Positions 4,934-61,404 of a stretch of 64,000 nt of DNA are shown here, one piece after another (position 1 is the stretch's first letter; each line of letters begins with the position of its first letter). Below the pieces are notes generated by a model that was given only the letters and a program-made list of their open reading frames with translations, was not told the origin of the DNA and did not search any database. The translations under genes and the position numbers were made by a program. Origin of the DNA: a virus (Duplodnaviria; Caudoviricetes); the IMG/VR virus record IMGVR_UViG_3300020576_002947, positions 160,001-224,000 of that record; one strand, given 5' to 3'.

Positions 4934-6539
4934 GGACCGAACCTAGTAAAGATGCTATGGCCTCAATATCTGGAAAGAGATCATAAGCTCCATCCTTTAA
5001 GGCAAAATATTGACTATCAGATAGATTATAGAGGTTACTGAGGTTGCTTAAGTAGGCATCTAGCTCAGCGAAAGTGGTTGGAACGCTAAATTCTTTGGCT
5101 TTTGCTGCCTTAGCCGCTTTTGTTTCAGAACCGTTATTACTCTTTTCATCTTGACCTGCTCCTCTACTGTCAGCCTTCACTTTAAGCAATGGGATCTGAA
5201 TCACATTTAGATGAGTAAGAGCCTTGTTGGGCATTCCAGGTAGGTCTGCGTTCTTCCTAGCTTCGCTAAGATCAACCAAGCCTTTAGCATAAAGATCGGC
5301 CCAGTGGTTCCTACTCTTGATCTTTTCATCCTCATCAACCTCAATTAGCCTGATAAATACACGATCATTCTCATTAGTGTAAGGATCGAAACCCTCTTCA
5401 TATAGGATCTGGTTAATAACCCAGAAAGAGAGAAGGTTTTCAAAGTTCTTAATTACCTGCTTCTTCTTTGGAAGGGTTAGTTCTTTGGCTGCTTGAGCAG
5501 CGCCTAAAGTACCTGTCTCCATACCCATAAGGAACGGGGTTACTCCAATACCAGAAAGAACTCTATTAGTAAAGATTTTTAAAATCTCTCCCATACGCAT
5601 AGCGTGAGATTCTGACCCAAAGTAATCAAACTCGTGATTAGGACCAGTAACTACAACACCACCAACAGGACCATTTCTATGCATTTGGTCTGCCTTCTCG
5701 ATTTCAGCAGCCAGACCTCCACCACCTTGACCTGTACCTAAACCACGTAAAACTTTGTGATGAATCAGCGGGTCCATGTGGTTCTTTGACATTACAAAGG
5801 TAGCTGCTTCAAGAGCTCTCAAGGTCTTAGTAGCTTCAAGAGACGCAAAGTTCAGTCCAAAGCCCCAGCGATTCTCAGCCTGCTCTTTATAAGCGAAATG
5901 GAAAAGATCCATTCCTTCCATATACTGATGTTCTTTAATCTTGGAAGGCTCAAACTTACTAATTAAACAATCTCCTGTCAGGAGTTGCTTTGCTTTGTTG
6001 GAAATCAAATTAGTAGGCTTCTTATCTCTTCGACTCCATACATCAACGCCATCAACAGTCTCTGGCTGGAGACTGCGAGCAGAAATCACTTCAAACCCAG
6101 AAATAGCATAAGGACGATCTTCATAGACACATCTATTTGCAGGGATTGACTGGTTGCCTCTCTTGATAGCCAAGAAACCATTGCCCAGCTTCCATGTTTC
6201 ATGGAATAAAGACTCGATGATTGTAGTGTAATGCTTTCCATTAGCAAGAGAAATTCTGTTTAGTCTTTTCTTTACTGTTTCAATTGCTTTTGCATTTTCA
6301 CCATCAAATCTAAAGCCTTTATAGCATTCAGAGTACATATTAATGGCTTGAGCAATAAGACCATCGCTTCGATAGGCCTTTTCACTATCCTCCATACGTC
6401 TTTCTGTATGCTTCTCAGATGAGTCTGAAAAGTATTGATAGTCTTCATTCCTACTTTTATGAACAAAGACTCTGGAGTCAAGTTGCTCATCAAGCCCTCG
6501 ACGATCATAATTATTTGCTCTTACGACTCTATCCAACAT
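4917..6539 (-). CDS. Portal protein
   Basis: 540 aa upstream of the protease; GNGFL, FHF...WGFG, GVTPFLMG and terminal LVDLSEARK segments are portal-like. Confidence 0.8.
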   Translation of the reverse strand: MLDRVVRANNYDRRGLDEQLDSRVFVHKSRNEDYQYFSDSSEKHTERRMEDSEKAYRSDGLIAQAINMYSECYKGFRFDGENAKAIETVKKRLNRISLANGKHYTTIIESLFHETWKLGNGFLAIKRGNQSIPANRCVYEDRPYAISGFEVISARSLQPETVDGVDVWSRRDKKPTNLISNKAKQLLTGDCLISKFEPSKIKEHQYMEGMDLFHFAYKEQAENRWGFGLNFASLEATKTLRALEAATFVMSKNHMDPLIHHKVLRGLGTGQGGGGLAAEIEKADQMHRNGPVGGVVVTGPNHEFDYFGSESHAMRMGEILKIFTNRVLSGIGVTPFLMGMETGTLGAAQAAKELTLPKKKQVIKNFENLLSFWVINQILYEEGFDPYTNENDRVFIRLIEVDEDEKIKSRNHWADLYAKGLVDLSEARKNADLPGMPNKALTHLNVIQIPLLKVKADSRGAGQDEKSNNGSETKAAKAAKAKEFSVPTTFAELDAYLSNLSNLYNLSDSQYFALKDGAYDLFPDIEAIASLLGSVLEYNE

Positions 6540-7005: not shown

Positions 7006-8107
7006 TAATTATCCTTTGTAAAGTCCTGGCTTTGACGCTACCTAAACGAGCTTCTTGCTCTGATTCAAGCTTTGCTTCTTTTGCAGCTAAGTTTTTCCTG
7101 ATCTGTAAACCTAAATCTGCTGCTGCGTCACTTATTAGTTGTCTAACAAATGGCAGAGTTCTAGATTCAGATCCAGCTATATGAGAAGCAAGACCGTCTA
7201 GAAAGTCGTCTACCTCATCTCCAATACTAGAAGCCATTTTAACTAGCTGAAGAGTCATTACTTCTTCTAAATAGCCTTGAAGAGTATTACCATAAGAGAC
7301 TGTAAAAACTTGTTTAGTTGGGGTCCAAACATCTGTCTCATTCTTTAAGTAGTTTTGGAGTAGATATTGAAGAGAGTGTGGAGATCCTTCTACAGCGACT
7401 GGTATGTAGTAAGATATAAAGTCCTTTAACTCCTCAGCAATAGGGTTCTCATATTCTTTCCTAAGCCCTACTGACCATTCTAAGATATTAGTTAGCTCAG
7501 TTTTAGCCTTGCCAAGTAAGTAAGAAAGCATTCTATTATTCTGAACCTCTTTACCTGGAATCACTTTGCCTGCTTTATCACGTTCAGATACAAGTACTAC
7601 TTTACCTGCCTTATCTTTAACTACTATAGGCTCTTTTGGCTTTAGAATATCATCTATAGCTTTATTAAATAAAACATCTAAAACTTCTGCTCTTTGTAGA
7701 TGCAAAAACACAGTCTGAAGAAACGACTCTGAGTGCCTATCAGACTTAGCTACCTCTTTCTCTATATTATCGATCTCAACTGCACTAGCTGTAAAGGATG
7801 GATAAGATACTGAGTCGTCTAAAATTAGCTCAATAGGAACGTAGTTTTGTTCTACAAGCTCAGCGTATCTAGGAAAATAAGGACTCTCAGCGCCAGCTTT
7901 GATATACTTAATAGTATCGTTTAAATCTGCTCTAACTCGTGCTGCTAACTCTTTAACATCATCTAGCTCAGCAGGAATTTTGGTATACTGAGTGTCATCC
8001 TCAACAGCAAGTTTGTCGATATTGAGGGTACTTGGTTCTACACCAGTAGACCCTGCTTCAACTTTCTTCTTTACATCAAATACCTTAAATAGGTCCGAAA
8101 TCCTCAC
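6983..8107 (-). CDS. Hypothetical helical head-module protein
   Basis: 374-aa ORF between terminase and portal, overlapping both neighbours. Confidence 0.6.
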   Translation of the reverse strand: MRISDLFKVFDVKKKVEAGSTGVEPSTLNIDKLAVEDDTQYTKIPAELDDVKELAARVRADLNDTIKYIKAGAESPYFPRYAELVEQNYVPIELILDDSVSYPSFTASAVEIDNIEKEVAKSDRHSESFLQTVFLHLQRAEVLDVLFNKAIDDILKPKEPIVVKDKAGKVVLVSERDKAGKVIPGKEVQNNRMLSYLLGKAKTELTNILEWSVGLRKEYENPIAEELKDFISYYIPVAVEGSPHSLQYLLQNYLKNETDVWTPTKQVFTVSYGNTLQGYLEEVMTLQLVKMASSIGDEVDDFLDGLASHIAGSESRTLPFVRQLISDAAADLGLQIRKNLAAKEAKLESEQEARLGSVKARTLQRIINVLENSF

Positions 8108-10508
8108 TGGGCCTCCATGCTGTATGCTTTATTATATCGTAAGTTACTAGCTCTGAGTCTAGCCATAGAAAATCTTCGTTATAGCCAGGGACATGTTTCT
8201 TTAATAGGGGTATAGGTTCAGGTAAAAAGTTATTTGTACCAACTAGTACTTTCTCCTTAATATCTTCACCATGTAAGAATATAATGTACTCAATAAACAT
8301 TAAACAGTCGATATAATGCTCGTCTTTATCAGTAAATACTTGTCTACCACTAGGATTTGTTTTTGATTGATATTTTATAAGCTGTCTCTTAAGATCAAGG
8401 TACTTAAAGTCGTCAGAATCATCAGCACCGCTAGCAATTAGCTTATCTTCTTCAACACGCTTACGTAATCTTTTAACCAGATACTCTTTAGCATGTCGTT
8501 TTTCTGACATAGTGTCTGAGTTTACATTTCGTGCAATTCTAGATTGTGAAGGTTCGTTAGAGTCTACCCAAAGGACACTCTGAAGGGCTAAGAGATAAAG
8601 CATTCCGTCTACATCGAATCCTCTTCTTTCTAGCTCGTACTTAAGCTCATCATATCGATCAAAACCACCTCCACCATGGTCCATACAAACATAATCAACT
8701 GAGTACTCCCAGTGTAGCTCTAGAAGTCTATTTACAGTATCATGTAGTAGTCTATCTGTAACAGCTAAGGTTTCTTGGTGAACTACAGTTAACTTGTCAG
8801 TTAATGGCTCGTACTGTCCAATTATAACTGAAGGACCACTTTGTACTCTATCCCAGTCACAACCCATTATTCTTACATGCGCCCGATCTACTAGATGGTT
8901 ACCATAAGTATATTCTTCTTTAAAGATTTTGTCTACTATGGTTTGAGGGAAAACTGTGTTCTCGCCACCCATAGGCTTTAGTAAGAATTCAGTTTCCCAT
9001 TCTATATCATTCTTACATTCAGCTCTGAGAGCTTTAAGATCATCTTCTGTAAGGTCGATCCCTAGTCGATCAGTTACAGGAATTTTGGTAATTGTAGATT
9101 TATCAGGTGGGTTAATAAAGATGTCGTTATAAAAACGGCCTGATGGGTTCTTAATAGTCCCGATAATATAGTTGATGTTGGTGTCAAAACGACGATGCTC
9201 TCCCTGCATATCACCAATCATAAAGGGCCAGATAGCTTGCCAAGCAGCATCAGAAATATCCTGCGCTTCATCAACAATAGTCATATCAGGGGACTTACCT
9301 CTGACTTTATCTGGTCTTACCAAGGCCATACCTGTAATAGTAGAACCAGTAATAAACTTCCTAGACGGCTGACCCGTATTGGTATTACCAACCTTATGTT
9401 TCATTAATTGAATCAAAGGACTGGCTTCTGTCATCATATCTATATAGTCAAATACTTCTTTTACCTGTTGTACTGATGCTGCAAAGTAGATTATTCTAAG
9501 ATCTTTCATTGTACATAGGAAGTATAGAATATTAGCAGCAATGCCGTAAGTCTTCCCACCTCTTCTATGAGCACAGTTATGTACAACAAGGTCTGAGGCC
9601 ATAAAATTATGGTCCTCATGGTCTACTGATATATCGTAAACATTACGAAGACCAATACTTCTTACATTAATGAGCTTATCCCAACATCTGGAAGGCTTGG
9701 TCTCTGTTTGATTAACTTCTAGTCCTATAAGATTTAAGAATTCATTGATGTCATGCTTTTCACACAGGAAGATGATATTGTCGTCATTAATTCTACTATG
9801 GATACCAAATCTTTGGAGCAAGTGCTGATGATCTTCAGCCATCTCTCTGGTTCTATTAAAGAGAGCAACTAATTCTTGATCTTTTTCTAAAATTCTACCT
9901 TGATTAGCAAAGTAATACGTAAAGTAATATCTTAAACACTCTTTAGTTAAAGAAAAGATCTTGGTGTTTACTGAGGCATGTAGTTGAGAGAGATCAGAAA
10001 GAAACTCAATTCCGTCTTTAGTCTCTTCAGATGTACCAAAGATATCAGTTTTGTCTGGAGTTAGTATACAGTCTCCAATCTTAAAGTCTTTTACCTTAAT
10101 CCAGCCTGACGATTTAGTATAGATTTCATGGTCTGGTGTAAGCCTAAGTACTTTACCTGATTCAAAGACTAGTTTATAGCACTCTTTCTTTTGAGGATTT
10201 TTAATCCACTTAGCGTCACTCCAAACTACTTTATTTAAAGTGAGGTCATATAAGACTGTTTCTTTTATCCAGTCTAAGGAGTCTATCCTAACAGGACGAA
10301 GTGTCTCTGGGTCGATAACCCTAGTAGTCTCATCAACACATACGTAGTTGTACTTATTAATACCAGCTAGTAGTTGTTTTTGAAGGTAATTTAACTTTAA
10401 AGGAGCTTTTGTAGTAGGATCTACTAAAACAGACTCAATCCACGGAATAGGGCCTTGAGCAGCAAGAGAAGATAAATATTTCCTATCCTCTTCAGAGATC
10501 TGAATCAT
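8085..10508 (-). CDS. terL: Terminase large subunit containing an intein
   Basis: Q motif (LNYLQKQ), Walker A AHRRGGKT, Walker B MTIVDEAQ, RNase H-like IMGCDW, CMD and C-terminal EHYID. Confidence 0.92.
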   Translation of the reverse strand: MIQISEEDRKYLSSLAAQGPIPWIESVLVDPTTKAPLKLNYLQKQLLAGINKYNYVCVDETTRVIDPETLRPVRIDSLDWIKETVLYDLTLNKVVWSDAKWIKNPQKKECYKLVFESGKVLRLTPDHEIYTKSSGWIKVKDFKIGDCILTPDKTDIFGTSEETKDGIEFLSDLSQLHASVNTKIFSLTKECLRYYFTYYFANQGRILEKDQELVALFNRTREMAEDHQHLLQRFGIHSRINDDNIIFLCEKHDINEFLNLIGLEVNQTETKPSRCWDKLINVRSIGLRNVYDISVDHEDHNFMASDLVVHNCAHRRGGKTYGIAANILYFLCTMKDLRIIYFAASVQQVKEVFDYIDMMTEASPLIQLMKHKVGNTNTGQPSRKFITGSTITGMALVRPDKVRGKSPDMTIVDEAQDISDAAWQAIWPFMIGDMQGEHRRFDTNINYIIGTIKNPSGRFYNDIFINPPDKSTITKIPVTDRLGIDLTEDDLKALRAECKNDIEWETEFLLKPMGGENTVFPQTIVDKIFKEEYTYGNHLVDRAHVRIMGCDWDRVQSGPSVIIGQYEPLTDKLTVVHQETLAVTDRLLHDTVNRLLELHWEYSVDYVCMDHGGGGFDRYDELKYELERRGFDVDGMLYLLALQSVLWVDSNEPSQSRIARNVNSDTMSEKRHAKEYLVKRLRKRVEEDKLIASGADDSDDFKYLDLKRQLIKYQSKTNPSGRQVFTDKDEHYIDCLMFIEYIIFLHGEDIKEKVLVGTNNFLPEPIPLLKKHVPGYNEDFLWLDSELVTYDIIKHTAWRPSEDFGPI
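9576..10340 (-). mobile_element. Intein (255 aa) in TerL with a degenerate LAGLIDADG remnant
   Basis: Starts CVDETTRV; block B LRLTPDHEIY; ends VYDISV...NFMASDLVVHN followed by Cys(+1); inserted just before Walker A. Confidence 0.93.
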
Positions 10509-12920: not shown

Positions 12921-13003
12921 CTTTACTACTAATGTCAAAAATAGTTTGACACTAGTATATTAGAGGCCTAGTCCTTGCACTCTAAGTTATATATAGAGTG
13001 TAA

Positions 13004-16000
13004 ATGTTTCCAAAACGGTCTAATGATACAGATGATTATAAGGGTCTAAGTAAGAAACAAGGCTCAATTAAAGGATTGGAGTCTATTAGATTAGATTTCA
13101 AACTAAAAGAGTTTTGGGTAACACAGAAGACTAAGGATGCTATGGCTAAAGACGTAGCTAACTCCTTAAACACCTTAAGTGGGTCAACAATTCACTATAA
13201 AACTCTTCCTGATAACTCTCGTCCTCAATGGGTTGATACCCTTAGCAATTTAAGTGATAGTCTTAATGGATTAGCTAGATTTAGTACCTCCCAAATTATG
13301 GGTGCTTTAGATAATTCAATTAATGCAACTAAAGATATGATATTAGAGGCTTCAAAAGTTTATCTAATGTTTAATCCTCAAATGCACAAACGAAACGGAG
13401 AACTAACTTTTACAGGGCAGGTAATGGGTAGGATTTATGATGTACACAAAGCATCATTCCAAACGGAAGCTACTAAAAATGCTCTTGAAGCAGCTTGGAA
13501 TTTAATGAATCCTAAGAGTGGTAAGTACGAGATGGTTAGTTTCCAAGCTAAAGTTCTTACTGTAGAAAACCCAGCACTTATAAGTGAAATGTTGTATGGT
13601 ACGAAAGGTGGTCTGAAGGATATGCCAGACTTTTCTGACTTACTAGGTACTATCGTTAAGGGAAGAGACGGTCAGCTTCTTTTTGTCACTGACGCTAGAG
13701 TATTTGCTCAGCTAGCTATTGATAATGATGGAGACGTAATTCAATTATCAGTACTAAAGAAGGTAGGGGAGTCTATCACAACATCAGCAGAGTTTGCATT
13801 CTACCAAAAATCCCCTGGTTTAAGAACAAATGGAGGCGTTAGACTATTAAACGGTCTTCTATCCCAACAATTGAGTGGTGCAGCAATAGATGCAGCAGTT
13901 ACTGACCCAGTTACAAAAAGACAACTAGAACTAAAGAGGCTTAAAGCAACAACCGACTTAACCCTTTATGCCCGCCAGAGATTCTTTGGTGCCCAATTAG
14001 ATGCTTTTGGATTAAATACTACAAATACCCCTGAAAGTCCTTATAAGGGGACAATGGATTATCGTTACAGCAAAAGTGATCTACTAAAAACTGGTGCTGG
14101 TTTAATTACTACTGGGGCCAACGGTAGATCACAATTTCCTGATATAAAAGAGATATTTGCTTTTGAGGAAGGTGGTGTAAAATTTATTGGAGATGACGCC
14201 TTATCCCCTCAAGCACTACCTTCAGGGGTAAGATCTATTTTAAGAGGAGCCTCCAGAGGAAAAGAAGTTGCCTTTTGGGAAGGTTACCGAGGAAAAGACC
14301 TATCAAACAAAATGTATGCTCAAGAGTATGCTTTTGGTGGTTATGCTAAAAAGCAGGCCATGAAAGAACTAATTCCACAAGTGCGTAGCAACAAACAGGT
14401 GGGTCTTTTAACTAATATGGTTTGGGTTAAGGAAGTCTCTGAAATCATGCAAAGCATGACAGATAAAGGGGATTTAAATAACATGATTGATCAACTGGAT
14501 ACTGCGTTTCTAAAGGCGGTAAGTGATCATGTTAGTTCAGGAGACATAGATCCTAAAGCATTAGCAAAGATTAGAGAATCTGCAGGAATGCTTGCTACGA
14601 TTACCTCAAAGTTAGGCTTAGGAGACAGACGCTTTAAAGTACTAGAGCTACAAGCACTAAAAGCAGGTATTGGAGGAAAGGCACAGACAATCGGAGCGGA
14701 CGCAAGTCTTGTTTGGGGAGAAGAGGCACAAAGAGTTTTTACTGAATCAGCCAGTTTGTACCTAACTAAATCTAAATATTTTTCTGGTATGAGCGTAACC
14801 CAGTTATCAGAAGTACTAGAAGATATGATGACGGGTAACTCTCGATACTTAAAGTCAGTAGGACCTGATTTCATTACTCAAATGACTAACCCATTTGGTA
14901 GCGTTCTATCTAGCTTTGAATCTGGCGGTGACGGAGCTGTAACTAGAGAAGTAAAACCAAGAGAATCTAAAATTAGGACCGATTATTCTAAAGCAGCTCT
15001 TGAGAAGAGAGCCCAAAGTAGACCTCTTGCTCATGTACTAGATCGTAATGGAGCAAAGAAAACCAAAGGAGCTTTAGATTATTTAATTGAAGCGGGTATA
15101 CTAGAAGTACATAGATTTGATATGAGCGCAGAGACTATAGGTGCTGAAAATTTAGGCCAACTACAGAGAATGGCTGGGCAGAATCCTGTTTCTTCAGTTA
15201 CAATTGTACAAAGGGACGCTGCGGGTGGTTATAGAAGCTGGGGAAGTAATCCTGGAATTCAAGCTACAGATACAGCAGCAAGACAAGCACAATTACTAGA
15301 AAACTCAGTATGGAGACCTACAGTAATGCTAGCGAATGCAAATGGTCTCGCTTTTGATAATACTACCCCACCTGAAGATATAATACCACTATTTCTTGAC
15401 CCCTTAGAAGCAGTAAGAAAAGCAACAGAGAATGTTTCAGGTATAATTGGTCTCGAAACTCAACAAAAAGGTGGTAAAGGAGTAAAAACACACTATAGAT
15501 TTAATATAGGTGATTTTAGTGGTGCAGCTATTAATAACGATGGTATGCCGGAAGCTAGTGGTATTACTCTTAAATCATTCAAAGACGATGAAAAGCTTCT
15601 TGAGAACGCCTTAAGAGGGTACTCCTCAAAGAAAGATTTCGATAATGGTGATATAAAGAAGATTCTTAATCTTGATGTTGAAAGCGAGATTAATAGAAAG
15701 GGTTTAATGGACTACGCAAAGAATCTATTAAACAGGGCCTTAAATGAGAACGACAAAGAAGCAGAGATTAAATTTAAAAGACTAGTCACTGGTGGGTTTA
15801 TGAGGTCTTATGCAGGACAAAGTTTTGAAAGAAAATTCAATGCAGCTGTTGCATCAGTAGCAGGAGAACTAGCACACCAAACGACACTAACTGTTCAACC
15901 AGGTGGAGGAGTAGGTTTAGGTATAAATCAAAATTCTGATGTATGGAGCAGAGGTTCTATTACTATAACAAACGAGTATGGTGATATTGTTGATGAACGA

Positions 16001-17662
16001 GACTTAGCTGATGGTATTATTATAGCACAGAAGTGGTTAAACTTAAGAATAGGTAGTAAAAAATCAGGACCACTAAATGCTGCGGCAAGAGCATTCCTCT
16101 ACGATCCGACCAAACCATCGTCTGTTGCAGATAAAAGAGGTAGTAAAATATCTAGCCAGGCTATTGCTGGCGTAGAAATAAAAGCTACGGTAGCTTACTT
16201 TATGCCAGATACTTTTCTTCAAGAACAGGGTGATGATCTTACTAAAAAGATTTTCAAAGGTAACGCAGATGAGTGGTTTGAGCACTTTTATTTAACACTG
16301 GCTGAAGACAAATCAGGTACTTACGAAGATCTATCCAATAAACAGAAGTTTCAGGGACAGGGCGAGCTTTTTCTTACCCCTGCAGGTGCAGCTAAAGTTA
16401 AAGCTCAACAAAAACTTAAAGCTGGAAAACTGATTGAGTACGAAGGAATACCACCTATGAAAGATCAGTTAAGTAGAAAAGCCCAAATGTTTTACGGCAA
16501 ATGGTATTATGTTCTTAGCGAAGAAGAGTTAGTTTCTGACGCTAAACTTGTAAATACTGCTGGCTGGTTAAAAGCTATGCCAATAGGAATTACAACTCAG
16601 TATACCATGAATCCTACTGGTGGCGGTGCAAAGCAAAACATTGATATGATGATAAGTCTTGGTGAGGTTTTTGCTAAATCCACAGGAATTAATCAACTAC
16701 TTATCCACCATGCCAATGAGCTAGGATTAACGTCAGAAGAAGTTAAAACCAAAATGGAAAAACATAGGGCTAACTTCCAAAAAGCTGTTAGCACTGGTGA
16801 TGATAAAGCCTTAAAAGGTCATATTACTGCAATGCTTGAGGACTTTGGATTAATGAAAGAAGAGGTAGAAGAAATAGATGAACAAGGGGTAGTAAGAAAA
16901 GCATCAGCTTGGGTTTTTGGCAAGCGTGATGAACGGGGTAATGCTGCGTTAGCGGATACCACAGTAATCTCACTTACAAATGTTGCAGAACACCTAGTAG
17001 CAAGAGAAACTTGGGATGAGAACTTGCAACGCTTAGTTATAAAAGGTGCTGAGTCAACCCAAGTTATGAAAGGAGGTTTAATGAGCCAGGATGTAATCAA
17101 TAAAATCTTTGGTGATGGTGCTGTTAAAGCATTTGACCTTTTCTCAGTACTTGGACGTGATGGTGAGGAAGGTTTAATAAAGAGCTTCGCAAGAGAGCTT
17201 AATCCTGGTGTGGTAACACTTACTGATAATATGATTGCACAGGCACGGCAAACACTGCAGGTTGGGTTTGTTGCAGTTGCTCAGCAGGAGTACACGGGAG
17301 CTGCGGAAAAGGCTACTGAGCACCTAAGATCGCAGCTAGGCCTATTAATGGATGCTAGACTTGAAATTCTTGATGCTATTAGTGGGGGTCAGATTATACA
17401 GGGCTTAGGTAGTATCAAAAAAGAAACTCACCAGCTACAAGCAATAGCCCATAGCATAGGCCTAGCAAGTCAAGCACAAAAACTTGGTACTATAGGTAAA
17501 GAATTAGAGGGCAAATCTGAAAACATGCTCCACTATCTAATGAAGAGTACTCCTGCTAATGGTAAGCTAGCAATAGCTATGGCCGCCACAGCAGCAACTG
17601 CTACAGCCTTTGCGATGAGAGGAAGAGTACAGGCTAAAAGAGAAGAAGCTCGTACCAGGTAG
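13004..17662 (+). CDS. Putative virion-packaged single-subunit two-barrel RNA polymerase (permuted domain order)
   Basis: DNDGD (aa 240-244), KSP (269), VGLLTN (466), ELQALKAG (548), GQGELFLT (1118), K1181-LVNTAGWL-K1190 and D1214-MMISLGEVFA-K1225, matching beta' and beta catalytic-barrel motifs; collinear with the 800-aa protein. Confidence 0.75.
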   Translation: MFPKRSNDTDDYKGLSKKQGSIKGLESIRLDFKLKEFWVTQKTKDAMAKDVANSLNTLSGSTIHYKTLPDNSRPQWVDTLSNLSDSLNGLARFSTSQIMGALDNSINATKDMILEASKVYLMFNPQMHKRNGELTFTGQVMGRIYDVHKASFQTEATKNALEAAWNLMNPKSGKYEMVSFQAKVLTVENPALISEMLYGTKGGLKDMPDFSDLLGTIVKGRDGQLLFVTDARVFAQLAIDNDGDVIQLSVLKKVGESITTSAEFAFYQKSPGLRTNGGVRLLNGLLSQQLSGAAIDAAVTDPVTKRQLELKRLKATTDLTLYARQRFFGAQLDAFGLNTTNTPESPYKGTMDYRYSKSDLLKTGAGLITTGANGRSQFPDIKEIFAFEEGGVKFIGDDALSPQALPSGVRSILRGASRGKEVAFWEGYRGKDLSNKMYAQEYAFGGYAKKQAMKELIPQVRSNKQVGLLTNMVWVKEVSEIMQSMTDKGDLNNMIDQLDTAFLKAVSDHVSSGDIDPKALAKIRESAGMLATITSKLGLGDRRFKVLELQALKAGIGGKAQTIGADASLVWGEEAQRVFTESASLYLTKSKYFSGMSVTQLSEVLEDMMTGNSRYLKSVGPDFITQMTNPFGSVLSSFESGGDGAVTREVKPRESKIRTDYSKAALEKRAQSRPLAHVLDRNGAKKTKGALDYLIEAGILEVHRFDMSAETIGAENLGQLQRMAGQNPVSSVTIVQRDAAGGYRSWGSNPGIQATDTAARQAQLLENSVWRPTVMLANANGLAFDNTTPPEDIIPLFLDPLEAVRKATENVSGIIGLETQQKGGKGVKTHYRFNIGDFSGAAINNDGMPEASGITLKSFKDDEKLLENALRGYSSKKDFDNGDIKKILNLDVESEINRKGLMDYAKNLLNRALNENDKEAEIKFKRLVTGGFMRSYAGQSFERKFNAAVASVAGELAHQTTLTVQPGGGVGLGINQNSDVWSRGSITITNEYGDIVDERDLADGIIIAQKWLNLRIGSKKSGPLNAAARAFLYDPTKPSSVADKRGSKISSQAIAGVEIKATVAYFMPDTFLQEQGDDLTKKIFKGNADEWFEHFYLTLAEDKSGTYEDLSNKQKFQGQGELFLTPAGAAKVKAQQKLKAGKLIEYEGIPPMKDQLSRKAQMFYGKWYYVLSEEELVSDAKLVNTAGWLKAMPIGITTQYTMNPTGGGAKQNIDMMISLGEVFAKSTGINQLLIHHANELGLTSEEVKTKMEKHRANFQKAVSTGDDKALKGHITAMLEDFGLMKEEVEEIDEQGVVRKASAWVFGKRDERGNAALADTTVISLTNVAEHLVARETWDENLQRLVIKGAESTQVMKGGLMSQDVINKIFGDGAVKAFDLFSVLGRDGEEGLIKSFARELNPGVVTLTDNMIAQARQTLQVGFVAVAQQEYTGAAEKATEHLRSQLGLLMDARLEILDAISGGQIIQGLGSIKKETHQLQAIAHSIGLASQAQKLGTIGKELEGKSENMLHYLMKSTPANGKLAIAMAATAATATAFAMRGRVQAKREEARTR

Positions 17663-17672
17663 TACGAGCTTC
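17645..17672. terminator. Hairpin between convergent genes
   Basis: Perfect 11-bp stem GAAGCTCGTAC/GTACGAGCTTC overlapping the stop codon. Confidence 0.6.
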
Positions 17673-18120: not shown

Positions 18121-18663
18121 CTAGAGGTTTTTTATTGTATAACGTTCTTTCATTAAATTTAATATAGTATCTATTGTATTTGGTCCCACTTCTACCTCAA
18201 TAAATGGAATGTTAAATTTAATTAAAATCGTTCTAATTTCGCTATCAAGTTCGATAGCCTCAGCTTCAGACTGAGTTCTACCATACTCTAAATAAGGATG
18301 CTCTTTTAGATTCCTAACCAGAAGAATATTGAAATTATCAAACTCATTAAAGAGTTCAACCATAAGAGTCTCAAAAGCATCCCTTTGCTTATCATGCTGG
18401 TACATGATACCAGTTATAATAGGAGAGTCACTAACTATTACATCGAGCTGGTCCTTTTTAATATAAACATCCTTCCATTGAGTCATGCTTATCCAAGGTT
18501 GGCACTCATTAAGCTCCTTAAATCTATGCTCCCATGTTAGCTGCTTTGCAAACTCAGGAACTAGTTCACTAAGGACCTTTCTCTCCTTTAAATGTGTTGA
18601 TAAGGCTAAACCGTAAGTTGACTTACCAATACCAGGACCACCAAAAAAATTTACTACTACCAT
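18121..18663 (-). CDS. NadR/AAA_28-type P-loop nucleotide kinase
   Basis: VNFFGGPGIGKST Walker A, EFAK, IVSDSP, GR.Q.E.EA..LD. Confidence 0.8.
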   Translation of the reverse strand: MVVVNFFGGPGIGKSTYGLALSTHLKERKVLSELVPEFAKQLTWEHRFKELNECQPWISMTQWKDVYIKKDQLDVIVSDSPIITGIMYQHDKQRDAFETLMVELFNEFDNFNILLVRNLKEHPYLEYGRTQSEAEAIELDSEIRTILIKFNIPFIEVEVGPNTIDTILNLMKERYTIKNL

Positions 18664-19139: not shown

Positions 19140-19643
19140 TTAGGTCACCTGTACTCCTCTTCTTCTGGGAGTTTCTCCCCCTCCACCACCCCAATCCTCT
19201 GTTAGGAGGACATCAGAGTCGTCTAGAAGTCTAAATTCAGCCATCTTAGCCTTCTGCTCTATACACCCAAAGATCGAAGCTCTCATTGAGAATCTCCAAT
19301 ACTGAGCAGCAATCCCTGGTGTTGGATTTTTAGTTTCTCCCGTATATGTACAACCTAAAGGAGAAGGAGCCATACCCATTGAGATAGAAGTCCAAGAGCT
19401 TCCGTCACTAGAGTACTCCAAGACCCTTGTTACGGGCTCATTAAACTCAATATAAGTAGATACTGTGGCTACTGTTGGTGGTGAGGACCCAAGATTCCAT
19501 ATCGCACAGATCTCAGCGTTGTGAATCTCATCACTTTTGATGACTTCATGGTAAGTAGCATTACTACTGTCGGTTAAGACGGTACTATCTACTAGTGTTC
19601 CATTATCTACAGCTAACTGGTAGCCTTCAGCCCATTTTGGCAT
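19140..19643 (-). CDS. Tail-fibre-associated beta protein (galactose-binding-like)
   Basis: LEYSSDGSSWT and AQYWRF motifs recall F5/8-type beta sandwiches; coupled to the fibre gene. Confidence 0.45.
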   Translation of the reverse strand: MPKWAEGYQLAVDNGTLVDSTVLTDSSNATYHEVIKSDEIHNAEICAIWNLGSSPPTVATVSTYIEFNEPVTRVLEYSSDGSSWTSISMGMAPSPLGCTYTGETKNPTPGIAAQYWRFSMRASIFGCIEQKAKMAEFRLLDDSDVLLTEDWGGGGGETPRRRGVQVT

Positions 19644-22600
19644 TACTGTTCTTCAATCTCCAGGTAAACGGTGAACTTAGCATGTGTAGCATCAAGTGCG
19701 GTGAAATTAACTCTCAGCCATGCATCCGATGCTAATGTTGTTGTTGAGAAGGTTGTGGTGCTTGCTTCGTAAGTTGAGCCACCAGATAAGCTAACATCAC
19801 CACCAGTATGAATGTTGGTAGCAGAGAAAGCACCAGTTCCATTATAGTACTCACAACGTACTGTCGTAGTTCCAGCAGAAGCCGTATTAACTCTTACTCG
19901 GAGTTTCTTAGGTGTCCAGTTAGTTCCAGCATCAGCAAGCCTTGGAATAGGAATTTGAACGTCGTCTGCACCTGAAGCAGTAGGGGTATAGGCTGAGAAG
20001 AAGACAAGAGTTCTACGTTCTTTCTTAGCACTAATCTGCCCCTGTAGTTTTCCAATACCCTGTAATACTGTATCACCAGCAACTACTACTGAGTTGGATG
20101 AAGAGAGACCAGTTAATGTACAAGCTCGTACAGTTGCGTCGAAGTCACTAATCTTACTGGCTGTTAGTGTTGGAATATCTCCAGCAACCAAAGCTCTAAA
20201 TGCAGGAACTGCTGAAGCTCCTGAAACAGGACCAGCAAAGACCAGTGAGCTAGCTTGATTAGCCCAAGCTGCTGTAAGAGTTCCAGATGAGGTAACGGGA
20301 GAACCTGTTACTGAGAACTGTGCAGGAAGCGAAAGAGCAACTGATGTAACAGTTCCTGTGCCTGCGGGAGTCTGCCAAGTACCATCACCTCTTAGGAACT
20401 GGGCACTTGTACCTACTGTTAAGGCACTAAGGTTTCCTGTAGCATCAGCCAGAACAACCTTATTACCCGTACCAGTAAAACCAGTTACGTTGATTGTTCC
20501 GGTAGAGAGAATTCTCATTCTCTCAGTAAGGGTTCCTCCTGTTGCTGTATAGAATACTAGACTTGCAGCGTCTTCGTTTGTTCCAATCTGAAGTGCCTCG
20601 ATTTTTGCATTTTCCTTAGGTGCAGTTGAACCAGCCCACCATGAGATTTTTCCAATCGTGCCACCGTCAGCAATAGCATTGGAGTCAGTAAACATCTCAA
20701 GGATAGGATAGACGGACGCTGTGTTTCGAATTTGCAGTCCGTTGTAACCAGAACCTGACAGAATAGTGTTGAGGTTGAATGTGAACGATGACCCGCCAAT
20801 GATGGTGTTCATCAGCCTGGTGTTTCCAGCATTAACCCACAAACTCCAAGGATTCGTCAGTGTGACATTTGTTCCAGCAACTGGAGGACCGCTTATGTAG
20901 GTGTTTACAGCATTTGTGTAGGTGACTGCTGAGTTAGTAGCAGCCAAAACTCCACCGCCAAATGAGTTGATGGTGTTCAGGGCAACAGTTGTGCTAGATG
21001 CGGTGCTAGTATCTGTAAAGATTGCACTGCCAAACCTAGCATTGATGCCATTTGAACCCCACGCCGTGCCAGAGTTGTTCCTAGCAACAAGAAAATTGAC
21101 TGGCACGGCTGATGTTCCAATCATGACGGGATTCTGGAAAAAGTTTCTCGCCCCAATACCAACTGCGTAACCCTCATAAACGCCCCAGACGTTCGTCGGG
21201 TAGGATGCTGTACCCGTTCCGACAATCTGCAATCCATACGAGTTGGAAATTGTGAAAGTTGCTGGATTAGTAAAATCAGTTAGTACTCTGACTCCATATG
21301 AGTTAGTTACAGTACCAGAACCAGTTGCGGCACTAGAAGCACCATGAATAAAGTATCCAGAGTAGATGTTGGAGAATATTCCAGCATGGGTAGATGTAAC
21401 TATCTTACAGTCAGAGTATACCCCAGCTATTACACCAGATATAGTCTTACCGGAGGCTACAGAACTATTAGAAAGGCTAAACCATCCACCATACTGGTTA
21501 GTAGCTGAAGTATCATTATAAGTGCTATTTACGTAGCTAAGGAAGCCATAATGTGTTCGTGCTGTAGTTGTGTTGTGAGTTGGAGTGGCAGAGAACTGAC
21601 CACCAGCAACAGCTACATCAGTTCCAGAGTTACCAACAGTTAGTTTTGAGGTAGCTGAGGTGCTTCCGAGCCCAACAAAACCAGCATTATTAACCGTAAA
21701 GATACTCGTTGTATCACTATTAGTTATCCTAAGAGCATCTGTGGAACTAGTATTCCCATTTCCCTGTATCTGTACCCTATGACTTCCGCTAGGCACAAGA
21801 CCAAAGCCAGTCATTCCAGCACCATCGGTATATACTGCGTTAGCATTTGCATCTGTAGCTACATTAAATGCAATTGTATTAGTAGTTGTACCAGTGGTTG
21901 ATACTTGAAGACCGTGCCTATTACTAGTACCTCCTGAGTGTCTAATAATAGCAGCGTAGTTTGCGTCACCTGCTGTCCTGGTAGCTGTAAACTGTCCTAT
22001 TGCAGCTACTACACCATCGTTTCTACAGGTAAAGTAAGCAGCTCCTGAATCAGGCCACACTCTTAACCCAAAACCACCTGAAGTAGCATCCGTACCAGTA
22101 ATTGTTAGTCTAACACCAGAGGATAATGCCCCTCCAAAGCCAGCCTCAGTACCATTAAATTGGAAGTTTGCATTCGTACTTAGACCACTAGAAGTACTGT
22201 TATAAACAAAGCAACCATCGAGTAAGCTCGAAAGATTTAACCCTGTGATAGTTGGGGTGTTTGGAAGTGAGAACGTTAGTCCTGTGGCGTCTTCGGTAAT
22301 GGTGATTTGATCAGTAGTACCAAAGAAGTTCTTTTTGGTAAAAGTGTCAGTTCCTGTCTGAAATACAGCACCGCTTGCAGTGTCTAGACCTGCCAATGCG
22401 GTTAGTGTGGAGTCTAAGCCTTGTGCATCACTAATACCGTATCCTGCTAGAGTAGTTGGAACACCAGAAGTAATATCTCCCCATGCGTGTACATGCGAGC
22501 TAGGGGTAAATGAGGTTGGAACACTTGTTAGAGTAGACCACGGTACATCAGTAATTCCATACCCAGCAAGAGTTGTAGGAACACCCGACGTAATGTCAGA

Positions 22601-51122: not shown

Positions 51123-51545
51123 ATGGGTTACGCATTTTTAGGAAGCGCTTTCGTTTTATCTTGGCTGTTTGCCTATTTTGAATTGTTATTGGTTACCAAA
51201 CTAAATCTTAAAGGCCTTGCCTTAAACCTTCCACTATTTGATTTCTTTTTCTCAATCCCTATCGCAATTTTGCTAGGTATTGGCTTTAATATTAATGGTG
51301 CTGTAGCTGGAATGGCTATGACACTTGCATCATTCTGGACTCTGTTCTGGTATGCTCATTGGAAGCGTAAGGAATTCAACAGATTCTATGATGGCAAGAA
51401 GCATAAGCTATGGAAATCTACGCTTGCAAAGGAACTCGACAAGATCAGGAATGATATTGAAGAGGGAACATTTATTGGTCAAATTTTAATAGATCAGCTT
51501 AAGGAAAAGGAAGCCAAGTTGAAGAAGGAGCTTAAGTGCAAGTAA
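51123..51545 (+). CDS. Multi-TM membrane protein with coiled-coil tail
   Basis: AAGGA RBS; overlaps the start of the polymerase gene. Confidence 0.6.
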   Translation: MGYAFLGSAFVLSWLFAYFELLLVTKLNLKGLALNLPLFDFFFSIPIAILLGIGFNINGAVAGMAMTLASFWTLFWYAHWKRKEFNRFYDGKKHKLWKSTLAKELDKIRNDIEEGTFIGQILIDQLKEKEAKLKKELKCK

Positions 51546-53938
51546 ATTATCAAGAGTATGAATGGTATGGACAACCTGTTGTCATTCCGTTCAGAGTTAT
51601 TGGTGAGAAATCTGTTATTGGCAAGGATGGTAAAGTGTCAAACGTTAAGCAGATCAACGAAGGAATCAAAGCGGCAGCAGACCGTGAAGATTTCCCTAAG
51701 TTGATTGATATGCTTGAGGACCAATACTTTAAGACATTGAGAATGGTCACTGGTATTCCTGTTAAAGGACACTATGGACCTGTCTTTACATCTGCAGACA
51801 TTGCACCTGAGTATTACTTCACAACTCCAGAAGGAGGAACAGTAGTTAATGAAGATCTTATGACTTCCAGAGCTGTTGACAGTGATGGAGATCATGCTCT
51901 AAGATCTAATCTAAAAGATGCAAATGGAAAATACTTTAAGCATAGGGAAGCTATGTTTATTAAGTTTCCATTTACTAAGAAGGTTCCTGTTCTTAAGGAA
52001 CTTCCTGGTAAGTATCCATATACAACTTTCACACCTGTCCCAGAGGACAAGGAAATCGTTATTACTGATATGTCTGAGAAGTACAATCTTGATGCTCTAG
52101 TTGAAAAAGCTAAAGATGTTCTTGCTATGCCGCTTGTCGGACCAACTGACAACTACTTTGATTATAAGGAAGCAATGGCCGTTAAGGATCTTGATTCCTA
52201 TCATATGAAAGTCCAACATCTGTTTGAAGACGAAGACAGATTTCTTGCTATGGAGGGAGATATGAAAAAGGTTCGCGGAGGGAAGATGGAGAAAGTCGAA
52301 ATCCCCCGAAGGCGAAGCATTGGGACACTTCCTACATGTTGGATTTTGGGTATGGCTAGGGGCAAGTCCTATTCACTACTTCCAGAAATTAAAGATGCTA
52401 TCTATATGATGAGGTATCTTGAAGGTATGGAATTTGAAACAGTCGAATCAGCGCTCTCTCGAAGAGACGATGAGGTGTTCCCCATTCCTAAGAAACTCGA
52501 GATCAATTCTAAAGGGCACGGCATTGTTCAAAGACTTATTGATCTCAAACTTCTAACCATTGAGAAGATTCCACATGCAGTCCCAGGACTGTTTGTATCT
52601 GTTATTAGATTGTATACTCCTAGTAAAGATTACAGAACTCTTCACCCAGTTGCTGTTACAGAAACTAAGAGAGACACTTCTGTTATGACTTACTGTATCG
52701 TAGTATCACCAATCGTGGTTAACTATGATAATCAGGTTAAGATTGTTCCTATTGAGTACGCTCTTGAAGCTCATCTCAATTCAGTTATGACATTTATGCC
52801 ACTATCAGGGGGCCATTGGCCTAGTCGATTGGATCATATCCACCAGAACCCTGTTAAGTCAGCTATGCTTGAGAAAGCTCTTAGAGAATTTCTCAGTAAG
52901 TATGGCTACTTCCTATATCATAATAAGACTATGAAGACAATGGCACTAGCCGTTGCTAAGAATAAGATTGCTGTCCATTTCCAAACTAAGAATCCACATG
53001 AGAAAGCTGCTTTCATGAAAGAGCTGAACATCAAGCTTAAAGCTACCAAGCTGGCTATTGTTCCATGTGGTGGAAACAAGAAAGGAACTGAACGTGCAAA
53101 CTTCAGTATTTGTGATCCTGTAACATTCTCGCCATTGTATGCGGGCAAGTACGCTGATCCAAAGCGTTCATGTCAGATTGCTTCTCAGCTTGCTAACGCT
53201 GTACCCCTACCCAGAAAGGCTTGTCTTGTTATTACAGGACGACCAGAAGATGGGAAGGGCACTGGCGGTCAGATGTTTATGACATCAGAGGGCGCTGAAC
53301 TAAGCAAACTATCTAACGTGTTTCTAAACTCATTGGTCTATCAGAAAGATGAGAATCATCAGCAACGAACAACATTCAGAAACTTTGCTGGAGAGGAATT
53401 TGAAGGCTGGCTTGGAGACCCTCAAGCGACTTCTGAAATCCCTAAAATCCTCAGCCCAATCGGACTGAAGAACATGGCTATGAGAATCTATAATAAGATT
53501 CAAGTACAGCATAATGGATTTTGGTTTGAACCTGATTTCCTGTTATCTCTGAAAGAGATTGAGGATAAGGATGCTTGGAATTCTCTTGTTGAGCATGGTG
53601 TCGAGAGATCATTCATGAACAACAATGGAGAAATTATTCCATGCTTCATCGTTTTCATAAACCTATATCGTTCTACTAATGCTTCAGAATGTGTCAAACC
53701 AGGTAAGAAGACCAGAGTGGTCTCAGGCATGGAAGCACATGCAATTAAGGAAGTTCTTTTAAATCATAATCTTGAGATTCCAGAATCAGAGCCTGACATG
53801 GAATATCTTGAAGCTATCAGAAAGGCAGTAGCGCAGATCAGAGATATCTGCAACCTGCCATTGCCCAATGTACCGGACGGCTTGTGTGCTGTTCGGGGGG
53901 CGGCGGTGGGTTCGGCGGAGGGTGCTGTCCCCTTGTAG
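51536..53938 (+). CDS. Putative non-virion minimal single-subunit two-barrel RNA polymerase (permuted domain order)
   Basis: AAGGAG RBS and GTG start; DSDGD (aa 115-119), KFP (143), VGPTDN (201), MEGDMKK (239), GTGGQMFMT (575), K637-ILSPIGL-K645 and D667-FLLSLKEIED-K678, with the same spacing as E. coli beta K1065/K1073/D1095/R1106. Confidence 0.75.
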   Translation: MQVNYQEYEWYGQPVVIPFRVIGEKSVIGKDGKVSNVKQINEGIKAAADREDFPKLIDMLEDQYFKTLRMVTGIPVKGHYGPVFTSADIAPEYYFTTPEGGTVVNEDLMTSRAVDSDGDHALRSNLKDANGKYFKHREAMFIKFPFTKKVPVLKELPGKYPYTTFTPVPEDKEIVITDMSEKYNLDALVEKAKDVLAMPLVGPTDNYFDYKEAMAVKDLDSYHMKVQHLFEDEDRFLAMEGDMKKVRGGKMEKVEIPRRRSIGTLPTCWILGMARGKSYSLLPEIKDAIYMMRYLEGMEFETVESALSRRDDEVFPIPKKLEINSKGHGIVQRLIDLKLLTIEKIPHAVPGLFVSVIRLYTPSKDYRTLHPVAVTETKRDTSVMTYCIVVSPIVVNYDNQVKIVPIEYALEAHLNSVMTFMPLSGGHWPSRLDHIHQNPVKSAMLEKALREFLSKYGYFLYHNKTMKTMALAVAKNKIAVHFQTKNPHEKAAFMKELNIKLKATKLAIVPCGGNKKGTERANFSICDPVTFSPLYAGKYADPKRSCQIASQLANAVPLPRKACLVITGRPEDGKGTGGQMFMTSEGAELSKLSNVFLNSLVYQKDENHQQRTTFRNFAGEEFEGWLGDPQATSEIPKILSPIGLKNMAMRIYNKIQVQHNGFWFEPDFLLSLKEIEDKDAWNSLVEHGVERSFMNNNGEIIPCFIVFINLYRSTNASECVKPGKKTRVVSGMEAHAIKEVLLNHNLEIPESEPDMEYLEAIRKAVAQIRDICNLPLPNVPDGLCAVRGAAVGSAEGAVPL

Positions 53939-60837: not shown

Positions 60838-61404
60838 ATGGTGGATGTAGAAAAAATTCTTATTGATAAAAAGCCAGATTTTTTAAAAATTGCTAGTAAT
60901 ATTGGAAGGTTCTATAGTCTGGACTCAGATGACATTCAAGATATTTATCAAGAAACTTGTATCAAGATATGGAATACAAGAGATCGTATCAACGAAGATA
61001 GTACTATTGAAAACTATTTCAGCCGTATCTGTGGTAGGGTAGCTCTTGATATTATTAGATATCGTAAGTATGTAAAAGAGAACAATCTAAGGCTAGTTAA
61101 CGACTTTAATCAAGGATCTTTTGAACTGGCTCGCTTTGTTGGTACAGATCATTGTCCATCAAACGGTTTTATATACTCAGGAGTTCGCTTTGTTCAAGAA
61201 AAAGAGCTTGATGCTATTTTCAGAGAACTAACCACGAAGGAAAGAATTGTTTTTACCCATCTGAAAGAAGAAAGAACTGCTGTAGAACTATCAAAAGTGT
61301 TAAAACTTACCACTAGTGGCACAAAAAACAGGATCTATGACCTTAGAGAATTCTTTAAAAGAAGACTAAGTTGTCCTGTTAATGAACTTATTTTCGAAAT
61401 ATGA
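60838..61404 (+). CDS. ECF-type RNA polymerase sigma factor
   Basis: Region 2 DIQDIYQETCIKIW...YFSRI....ALDIIR; region 4 LT.KER.VF...ELSKVL.LT.SG.KNRI. Confidence 0.8.
   Translation: MVDVEKILIDKKPDFLKIASNIGRFYSLDSDDIQDIYQETCIKIWNTRDRINEDSTIENYFSRICGRVALDIIRYRKYVKENNLRLVNDFNQGSFELARFVGTDHCPSNGFIYSGVRFVQEKELDAIFRELTTKERIVFTHLKEERTAVELSKVLKLTTSGTKNRIYDLREFFKRRLSCPVNELIFEI

Follow-up and report, generated by a model that had tools for sequence, protein, structure and literature searches.

The 64,000-nucleotide window analyzed here belongs to the 239,691-bp record of an uncultured 240-kb wastewater phage, known from metagenomic contigs only. An open reading frame on the plus strand (13004..17662) begins with ATG, ends with TAG and codes for P0001, a protein of 1552 aa whose C-terminus, ...GKLAIAMAATAATATAFAMRGRVQAKREEARTR, is the same as that quoted in the initial annotation. 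This open reading frame is a real gene, since comparison with its 88%-identical relative gave a dN/dS of 0.12 overall, indicating purifying selection; the value for residues 1-290 was 0.05. P0001 belongs to an orphan family with three known members, as only two relatives (88% and 26% identity) were recovered among ~15 billion proteins. The sole distant match among 1.84 billion representatives covered residues 161-294 (E 8.8e-10). A second conserved region, residues 1029-1305, contains the invariant K/R residues and matches the 26%-identical relative, P0005, by BLASTP at 2e-9. P0005 retains a DxDGD motif, three downstream motif blocks, a C-terminal helix with a KR..EE.RT tail and the inverted orientation of the gene. 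Conservation in the family peaks around DxDGD, and residues described as invariant are based on one distant comparison given the three-member family.

P0001 had been described as the only substantial plus-strand gene in 36 kb of minus-strand genes, and we confirmed this: the other plus-strand ORFs of at least 100 aa within 1-36265 (3426-3782, 22380-22724 and 23691-23993) are all nested in longer minus-strand ORFs. The observation extends beyond that interval, P0001 being the only plus-strand gene in a 104-kb minus-strand late block that spans 91.9 to 196.3 kb of the record. Strand tracks module in this genome, with plus-strand genes at 0-92 kb and 196-240 kb and minus-strand genes in the late block. 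The gene is embedded in the structural module. On one side, PHROGs profiles identified the major head (413-1654), portal (4917-6539) and large terminase (8085-10508) genes of the minus block, as the initial annotation held; on the other side, the ‘tail fibre’ of that annotation is a 3499-aa S/T/G-rich repeat protein in the minus block (19643-30142) that is fibre-like by composition alone and had no family match. The layout around P0001 is the same on L002, the contig of the 88% relative, and the contig of the 26% relative retains both the inverted arrangement and the position between the terminase and fibre genes. A 188-aa phage sigma-70 region-2 protein is encoded at 60838..61404 on the plus strand (29.5-31.2 bits against a cut-off of 24), and the late block uses classic hairpin and T-run terminators; both suggest that at least part of the transcription programme relies on host RNA polymerase (RNAP).

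The start of P0001 is separated from a minus-strand 144-aa ORF by a divergent intergenic gap of 65 nt (12939..13003) that is 100% identical in L002. The gap has these limits if the neighbor starts at TTG 12938, and would be 12921-13003, the interval to which a P0001 promoter had been assigned, only if the neighbor starts at ATG 12920. The 65-nt gap must carry promoters for both directions; the best sigma-70-like promoter match within 12939..13003 was 9/12, which did not exceed that of shuffled sequences. A 10-bp hairpin abuts the P0001 AUG on the plus strand (12975..13003; -12.9 kcal/mol, z -2.1, equaled by 6 of 200 shuffles) and would bury a weak GAG Shine-Dalgarno sequence, a minor and weakly supported feature. 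At the 3’-end, folding identified an 11-12-bp GC-rich hairpin (17645..17672) across the P0001 stop codon at the convergent junction, with energies of -19.9 and -21.0 kcal/mol (z -7.0 and -6.8). The structure is terminator-like in both directions, with the better T-run on the minus strand, and is kept in L002, where change is confined to the loop. The divergent gap and this stable hairpin support, by geometry, the status of P0001 as its own transcription unit. No promoter consensus exceeded chance. We propose that transcription of P0001 would start in the 65-nt gap and end at the hairpin (17645-17672), which may also shield the gene from antisense read-through out of the late operon.

We analyzed the conserved regions of P0001 by family alignment. 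An invariant P190-x-L192 (13571..13579, plus strand) follows an invariant K-V strand and aligns with the beta’ NRAPTLH element of E. coli rpoC and with RYPNL of P0006, another protein of this phage. About 50 residues downstream lies A-I-D-x-D-G-D, with an alternating hydrophobic stretch after it, within Block A (residues 232-252, RVFAQLAIDNDGDVIQLSVLK; 13697..13759, plus strand), the most conserved 50-residue window relative to the 26% relative (0.40). Its putative Mg-binding DNDGD (residues 240-244; 13721-13735, plus strand) is invariant in all three family members, and hhalign placed it in register with NADFDGD of E. coli in a single comparison (E 0.036). The predicted strand-loop-strand formed by P-x-L and A-I-D-x-D-G-D is like that of the beta’ barrel. 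A D.DGD motif alone is expected about once per genome of this size by our estimate. The motif occurs once in P0001 and differs from the pattern of EF-hand, dockerin and FG-GAP loops, where a Gly comes after the third Asp.

Three basic-residue blocks follow on the plus strand, 800-1000 residues downstream of DNDGD: Block B (residues 1042-1066, ADKRGSKISSQ...KATVAYF; 16127..16201) with invariant K1044, R1045 and K1048, Block C (residues 1116-1133, FQGQGELFLTPAGAAKVK; 16349..16402) with invariant K1131, and Block D (residues 1212-1227, NIDMMISLGEVFAKST; 16637..16684) with invariant K1225. The D-x10-K pattern of Block D resembles the beta D-x10-R in DIVLNPLGVPSR. The E. coli beta blocks failed to land on Blocks B-D of P0001 in a low-power test that also missed a genuine YonO-like enzyme.

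The blocks recur elsewhere in the genome. P0003, an 800-aa protein encoded at 51536..53938 (plus strand) in the non-structural plus-strand arm and itself an orphan, carries DSDGD at residues 115-119 and motifs corresponding to Blocks B-D at 541, 574 and 665. Block B of P0001 matches P0003 541-565, Block C matches 574-591, and Block D matches both P0003 665-680 and P0007 332-347. With blocks defined from P0001 and P0005 alone, independently of the targets, the collinear four-block score of P0003 was 82 compared to 35.8 +/- 7.2 for shuffles, none of 5000 reaching 82, and was the highest of all proteins of at least 300 aa in the genome; with the DxDGD block left out, p was ~0.0014. Blocks B-D also recur in P0007, a beta-like ORF, at p ~0.005 (10 of 2000 shuffles); its partner P0006 is a beta’-like ORF with RYPNL...EGDADGD. 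The order P0006 then P0007 matches that of P0003, in which a second barrel, if any, would follow DxDGD because that motif lies at residue 115 of 800. BLASTP, Smith-Waterman and hhalign comparisons of P0001 with P0003 were not significant, and neither pairwise nor profile comparison linked P0001, P0003, P0006 and P0007 significantly to one another. The length difference of about 750 aa given earlier between P0001 and its paralog is arithmetically correct (1552 - 800 = 752), but the paralogy of P0003 is supported at the level of motifs only. P0003 and the P0006/P0007 pair are, by motifs only, candidates for non-virion RNAPs of this phage.

Pfam, PHROGs and PDB sequence searches with P0001 were blank for single sequences and profiles alike, the ESM Atlas gave no usable match, and no comparison with a known polymerase was statistically significant. 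Across the whole genome, PF00623, PF00562 and PF05183 found nothing at E values up to 10. AlphaFold2 models of P0001 reached pLDDT values of 29.9 and 41.2, which is no evidence for any fold, a barrel included; these low-confidence models have a strand-loop-strand at DxDGD and are mostly helical overall. The proposal that P0001 is an RNAP is plausible, with the beta’-like context of DxDGD and the conserved blocks common to two other ORFs in its favor, but drew neither a profile match nor a confident fold.

The hydrophobic C-terminal helix followed by basic residues is present exactly as previously quoted. The Ala/Thr-rich helix (residues 1521-1540; 17564..17623, plus strand) contains the top 19-residue hydrophobic window of P0001, and its Kyte-Doolittle value of 1.30 is moderate and below the 1.6 usual for a transmembrane helix. 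An equivalent Ala/Gly-rich segment lies at the same place in P0005 (1.49, also below 1.6). The charged tail RVQAKREEARTR (17624..17659, plus strand) has the KR..EE.RT pattern common to P0005. Helix and tail form the last 32 residues, a position that, with the tail, fits tail-anchored proteins. Conservation in P0005 argues for a functional tail, which may be a tail-anchor-like element binding a membrane or a partner.

We compared P0001 with known phage polymerases. One close likeness is gp66 of Cellulophaga crAss-like phage phi14:2 (2180 aa; PDB 6VR4), a virion-packaged single-chain two-barrel RNAP, encoded among structural genes, that is ejected with the DNA and transcribes early genes (bioRxiv 10.1101/2020.03.07.982082). 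Like P0001, gp66 is a large single chain from a structural-gene setting; DxDxD is its sole clue in sequence, and homologues are undetectable over most of its length. In gp66, however, the other barrel and a ~140-residue connector precede the catalytic motif DFDID (1361-1365), whereas DNDGD of P0001 lies at 240-244 with the candidate second barrel after it. The two proteins have no detectable sequence similarity, the P0001 gene points against the late genes, and the hydrophobic C-terminal helix is a P0001 feature that the available part of the preprint (bioRxiv 10.1101/2020.03.07.982082) does not mention for gp66. Sequence methods likewise barely detect several genuine phage two-barrel members, gp66 for example. 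Thermus phage P23-45 has a virion RNAP fused to the tape measure, gp96, and a non-virion RNAP, gp64, distant paralogues recognizable almost only around DxDxD (PMC10770324). This pair of a large virion and a smaller non-virion enzyme has a parallel in P0001 (1552 aa) and P0003 (800 aa). However, gp96 lies in the tail module, whereas P0001 lies upstream of the terminase; in this myovirus, three other giants, all without D.DGD, occupy the tape-measure position. In P23-45, barrel B comes before barrel A, the reverse of the order proposed for P0001.

The nearest characterized relative, the jumbo Bacillus phage 0305phi8-36, has a capsid distantly related to that of this phage and encodes gp99, a single-chain two-barrel enzyme of the YonO/QDE-1 type (PF05183) with DTDGD at ~574 of 1218 and the other barrel before it, unlike the DNDGD of P0001 at 240. 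PF05183 found nothing in this genome, and the block test was negative for gp99 (z 0.8). Its gene is in the non-structural arm, whereas P0001 is in the structural arm, and the phage record carries no virion mass-spectrometry note for gp99, unlike many other proteins there. The phiKZ/AR9-type jumbo phages encode at least two sets of two-barrel RNAP genes, one virion and one non-virion (PMC7598289, PMC7824862); their multi-chain subunits are found by Pfam and sequence searches, whereas nothing here reaches threshold. In the current model for coliphage N4, the virion RNAP gp50 (3500 aa) is anchored in the inner membrane after ejection, which matches the role proposed here for the P0001 helix, albeit through an N-terminal membrane-spanning part (PMC13434306). 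N4 gp50 has a T7-like right-hand fold unrelated to the two-barrel type. Its gene has the same orientation as the late genes.

We favor, at even odds, the reading of P0001 as a single-chain, highly divergent member of the two-barrel (beta/beta’-type) nucleotide-polymerase superfamily, probably with the activity of a DNA-dependent RNA polymerase; its fold, catalysis and tail role are what we infer, from a gene whose orientation, conservation, motifs and collinear blocks in two other ORFs are shown. A Mg-binding barrel with P-x-L ... AIDNDGD (residues ~183-255) would come first, and a second, basic-residue barrel (1042-1066, 1116-1133 and 1212-1227) would follow ~800-1000 residues downstream. With DxDGD at residue 240 of 1552, P0001 departs from the DPBB-B, connector, DPBB-A order of the QDE-1/YonO/crAss gp66/P23-45 clade; if it is a polymerase, its order of beta’ then beta barrel would be the reverse of that in all described single-chain enzymes.

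The setting of the gene inside the structural arm and beside the packaging genes would also suit a protein of the virion, of ejection or of morphogenesis that lacks polymerase activity, in which DxDGD binds a structural metal such as Ca2+ and the Ala/Gly-rich C-terminal helix inserts into the host membrane or a partner during infection, as do hydrophobic helices of T7 and N4 ejection proteins. The large size of P0001, its mostly helical low-confidence models, the conserved hydrophobic C-terminal segment, the blank polymerase profiles and the helices carried by the N4 ejection proteins gp51 and gp52 (PMC13434306) are consistent with such a protein. It would leave unexplained the ordered blocks and basic residues in P0003 and P0007 and the orientation opposite to the other structural genes, and the single DxDGD is unlike the common metal-binding loops named above; we consider it possible though doubtful. 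A coincidental motif likeness in an enzyme or host-takeover factor of unrelated novel fold would agree with the failure of every formal homology test and with a three-member family whose ‘invariant’ residues come from one distant comparison. The four collinear blocks of P0003 (0/5000 shuffles), the P0007 result (10/2000) and the beta’ barrel spacing and context of the P-x-L and DxDGD pair speak against coincidence, which we regard as quite improbable.

The motif evidence applies equally to an unpackaged two-barrel polymerase that is expressed early or middle off its own promoter and tail-anchored to the membrane in the cell, where it could, for instance, serve one step of a multi-RNAP cascade that includes P0003 and P0006/P0007. 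The plus orientation matches the early and middle arms, P0001 has its own divergent gap and terminator, and the RNAP of 0305phi8-36 is without virion annotation; retention of the terminase-fibre position in the 26% relative, and a size twice that of the other candidates, as is usual for virion compared to non-virion RNAPs, argue the other way. We judge such an enzyme unlikely. Should P0001 be a polymerase, its packaging in the virion is in our estimate evenly poised: its structural-arm location favors packaging, while the orientation opposed to every late gene, the phage sigma factor, the helix hydropathy below the usual transmembrane threshold and the 0305phi8-36 gp99 record, which lacks a virion mass-spectrometry note, count against it. 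A packaged polymerase is unlikely overall.

The more speculative half of our proposal is that P0001 would be packaged and, once ejected, would transcribe early genes while its helix kept the enzyme tethered to the inner membrane. In its fullest form, which we rate as very unlikely, P0001, P0003 and P0006/P0007 would represent an undescribed lineage of two-barrel RNAPs, with the beta’-type catalytic barrel before the beta-type barrel and with both fused and split forms. P0001 would be the virion form, anchored by its C-terminal helix in the inner membrane after ejection, and transcription by the fixed enzyme would reel in the 240-kb genome.

The plus-strand ORF at 13004-17662 encodes a protein of 1552 aa (P0001) that ends, as quoted in the initial annotation, in a hydrophobic helix and a basic tail. 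The initial description of a lone plus-strand gene was confirmed and proved stronger than claimed, as the ORF is the sole plus-strand gene not only in window positions 1-36265 but across the entire minus-strand late block (genome 91.9-196.3 kb). Comparison of P0001 with an 88% identical relative (P0004), located on a 67.9-kb Logan contig, gave a dN/dS of 0.12 for the whole protein, falling to 0.05 in residues 1-290, showing that the ORF is a genuine, constrained gene.

We searched for further relatives with a word index (protein and family profile), by exhaustive phmmer against 1.84 billion representatives, by tblastn against 50,697 phage records (queries P0001, P0003, P0005, P0006 and P0007), and in viral, metagenome and genome contig collections and the ESM Atlas. 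P0001 produced no match in Pfam, PHROG or the PDB. Only two relatives were recovered among ~15 billion proteins, P0004 and P0005 (1328 aa, with 26% identity, from a 7.7-kb ENA contig), and the viral, metagenome and genome contig scans added none. The family therefore numbers three sequences in all, making a deep alignment impossible. P0005 retains the AIDxDGDxIQL motif with an upstream invariant K-V...P-x-L, as well as a second conserved region (P0001 residues 1029-1305) in which K1044, R1045, K1048, K1131 and K1225 are invariant. The P0005 gene is opposite in strand to five small upstream and two downstream genes on its contig, indicating that the inverted orientation is old and conserved. 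We rejected a recent inversion or an invertible segment, given that no flanking inverted repeats above chance were found around the gene and no joints in public runs.

The source is a contractile-tailed jumbo phage with recognizable tail sheath and baseplate wedge genes, and its 239,691-bp IMG/VR record, of which the window covers bases 160001-224000, has an estimated completeness of 94%. The major head (413-1654), portal (4917-6539) and large terminase (8085-10508; 807 aa) genes are all on the minus strand. A Pfam Intein_splicing match in the counterpart of the terminase on the contig of the 88% relative makes an intein in the terminase probable. The capsid shows only distant kinship, at 22-27% identity, with the capsids of Bacillus phage 0305phi8-36 and Acinetobacter phage ME3. 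Identical short contigs were found in wastewater runs from three studies; two runs labelled ‘RNA-Seq’ are probably DNA and their contigs are short and low-depth, so they are uninformative on expression. Directly downstream of the inverted gene is a 180-aa thymidylate-kinase/AAA_28-like ORF (18121-18663, minus); a position within the structural arm is unusual for a nucleotide kinase. The neighboring 3499-aa protein (19643-30142, minus) is S/T/G-rich, contains long internal duplications and matches no family, and the gene at its position in the 88% relative encodes only 1432 aa, so the length of this fiber-like giant differs greatly between near-identical phages. Its identity as an N4-type virion RNAP was rejected because the protein is repeat-rich and fiber-like. 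The late block terminates with a 347-aa ORF (35222-36265, minus) with GIY-YIG and HNH homing-endonuclease matches. The stretch from the tail sheath to the baseplate wedge genes, the expected site of a tape measure, is taken up by three giant ORFs (3257, 1786 and 2136 aa; genome 125896-149747, minus). They gave no PHROG match among those tested and lack D.DGD, and two of them are separated by a metallophosphoesterase-like ORF.

The initial annotation interpreted P0001 as a candidate virion RNA polymerase. An N-terminal element of the protein resembles the beta' double-psi barrel (E. coli VLLNRAPTLH...AAYNADFDGDQMAVH vs KVLTVENPALIS...QLAIDNDGDVIQLSV in P0001), and hhalign recovered this register between E. 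coli beta' and P0001 (E 0.036, in a single comparison). Four ungapped blocks (A-D; P0001 residues 232-252, 1042-1066, 1116-1133 and 1212-1227) were defined from P0001 and P0005 alone, and their ordered recurrence was scored among all proteins of the genome of at least 300 aa. The candidate paralog P0003 (51536-53938, plus; DSDGD at residue 115) ranked top with a score of 82, compared with 35.8 +/- 7.2 for its shuffles, none of which (0/5000) reached that value; without the DxDGD block the p-value was about 0.0014. Blocks B-D also occur in order in P0007 (p about 0.005), a 457-aa protein with GGDLFPSGQKKVG...PIDLLLDFTTLTAKG whose gene adjoins that of P0006 (368 aa), both on the plus strand at genome 42825-45513 (L003:825-3513). 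P0006 carries RYPNLGPQ...EGDADGD, a near-canonical beta' signature. The two proteins gave no match in Pfam, PHROG or the tblastn against phage records, and are a possible miniature split beta'/beta polymerase. The recurrence of the blocks in P0003 and P0007, together with the P0006 signature, gives three loci in this genome a common ordered motif set that reads as a beta' barrel followed by a beta barrel.

Every formal homology test of the polymerase reading was negative. No significant result was obtained with hhalign of the P0001 family against P0003, P0006 and P0007, hmmsearch of family sub-profiles against the genome's own proteins, Smith-Waterman with shuffles, BLASTP of P0003 against P0006 and P0007, or a PDB search with a profile built from four DxDGD regions. 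Scanning E. coli beta and beta' blocks over the candidates was likewise not significant, a powerless test that also missed a genuine YonO-like enzyme. The YonO-like enzyme gp99 of 0305phi8-36 gave no signal in our block test. AlphaFold2 models from the three-sequence alignment had a pLDDT of 29.9 (residues 140-1339) and 41.2 (residues 150-335), so fold matches of these models would be meaningless. A family of just three sequences also weighs against the reading. The motifs leave the polymerase reading plausible, with P0001 having an even chance of being such an enzyme.

To our knowledge, the described single-chain two-barrel RNAPs (QDE-1 and other RNAi polymerases, YonO, crAss gp66, P23-45) all have one domain order. 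QDE-1, crAss gp66, P23-45 and YonO-like enzymes place the basic barrel first and DxDxD in the middle or later. P0001, in contrast, has DxDGD at residue 240 of 1552, and P0003 at 115 of 800, which leaves P0003 no space for an upstream barrel; the split pair likewise runs from beta'-like P0006 to beta-like P0007. Membership of P0001 in the QDE-1/YonO/crAss clade thus fails on a defining feature, and P0001, if a polymerase, would be a new architectural variant.

The initial annotation also proposed that the gene has its own promoter. The 65-nt upstream gap is shared with a divergent minus-strand gene, and a weak hairpin adjoins the AUG. A sigma-70 consensus scan of this gap found no site above chance, and no repeated motif common to it and other intergenic regions was found. 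A GC-rich hairpin of 11-12 bp (-20 to -21 kcal/mol, z about -7) lies precisely on the convergent 3’ junction and straddles the stop codon; its T-run is better on the minus strand. The hairpin may be a two-way terminator that closes the plus transcript and blocks antisense read-through from the late operon into the gene. The divergent gap and junction hairpin therefore back an own transcription unit by geometry, but no promoter site stood out. Many late intergenic gaps carry a GC-rich hairpin and T-run, then AT-rich sequence ahead of the start codon (e.g., genome 114956-115015, 153419-153481, 160319-160412 and 190143-200), an arrangement that suggests units of termination and re-initiation as is typical for bacterial RNAP. 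The 188-aa protein at 60838-61404 (plus) has a Sigma-70 region 2 domain above the Pfam cut-off, which implies a redirected host RNAP core beside up to three candidate phage polymerases. Given this protein and the late terminators, the host core probably serves part of the programme.

Virion packaging, as initially proposed, is favored by the structural-arm position, which is kept at 26% identity, and by P0001 being double the size of the other candidates; virion RNAPs of crAss and P23-45 phages are precedents. Weighing against packaging, or neutral to it, are the orientation of the gene, opposed to all late genes and on the strand of the non-structural arms, and the phage sigma protein with classic late-block terminators. 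Also on this side, the RNAP gene of 0305phi8-36 lies in the non-structural arm, without a virion mass-spectrometry note. In N4, virion and host RNAPs coexist. Were P0001 a polymerase, the case for packaging would be roughly balanced; that it is both polymerase and packaged is unlikely.

The C-terminal helix is the most hydrophobic 19-residue window in P0001, with a Kyte-Doolittle value of only 1.30 (1.49 for the equivalent P0005 segment). Ala, Gly and Thr abound in the segment, which is 13 residues from the end in P0001 and about 22 in P0005; the latter protein also has the charged tail pattern KR..EE.RT. The helix is conserved and so functionally important. We prefer the reading that it may insert in the membrane like a tail anchor; these features would equally allow a helix that signals packaging or binds a partner. 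A 2026 model of N4 has the ejected virion RNAP remaining tethered at the inner membrane, a functional precedent for tethering, although the membrane part of the N4 enzyme is N-terminal and the P0001 helix is C-terminal (PMC13434306). If a structural-arm polymerase were anchored in the membrane by its conserved C-terminus, this would offer a mechanism by which contractile-tailed jumbo phages couple ejection to membrane tethering and to first transcription.

Should the motifs be coincidental, the gene remains a conserved, oddly oriented orphan of a barely sampled wastewater phage lineage, of modest interest. Single-chain two-barrel RNAPs serve arguments on the origin of cellular RNAPs and eukaryotic RNAi polymerases. 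If the polymerase reading is true, a lineage with the opposite order, with 1552-aa, 800-aa and split 368+457-aa forms in one genome, would mean that the two barrels were fused or permuted independently, and would supply a very small model enzyme.
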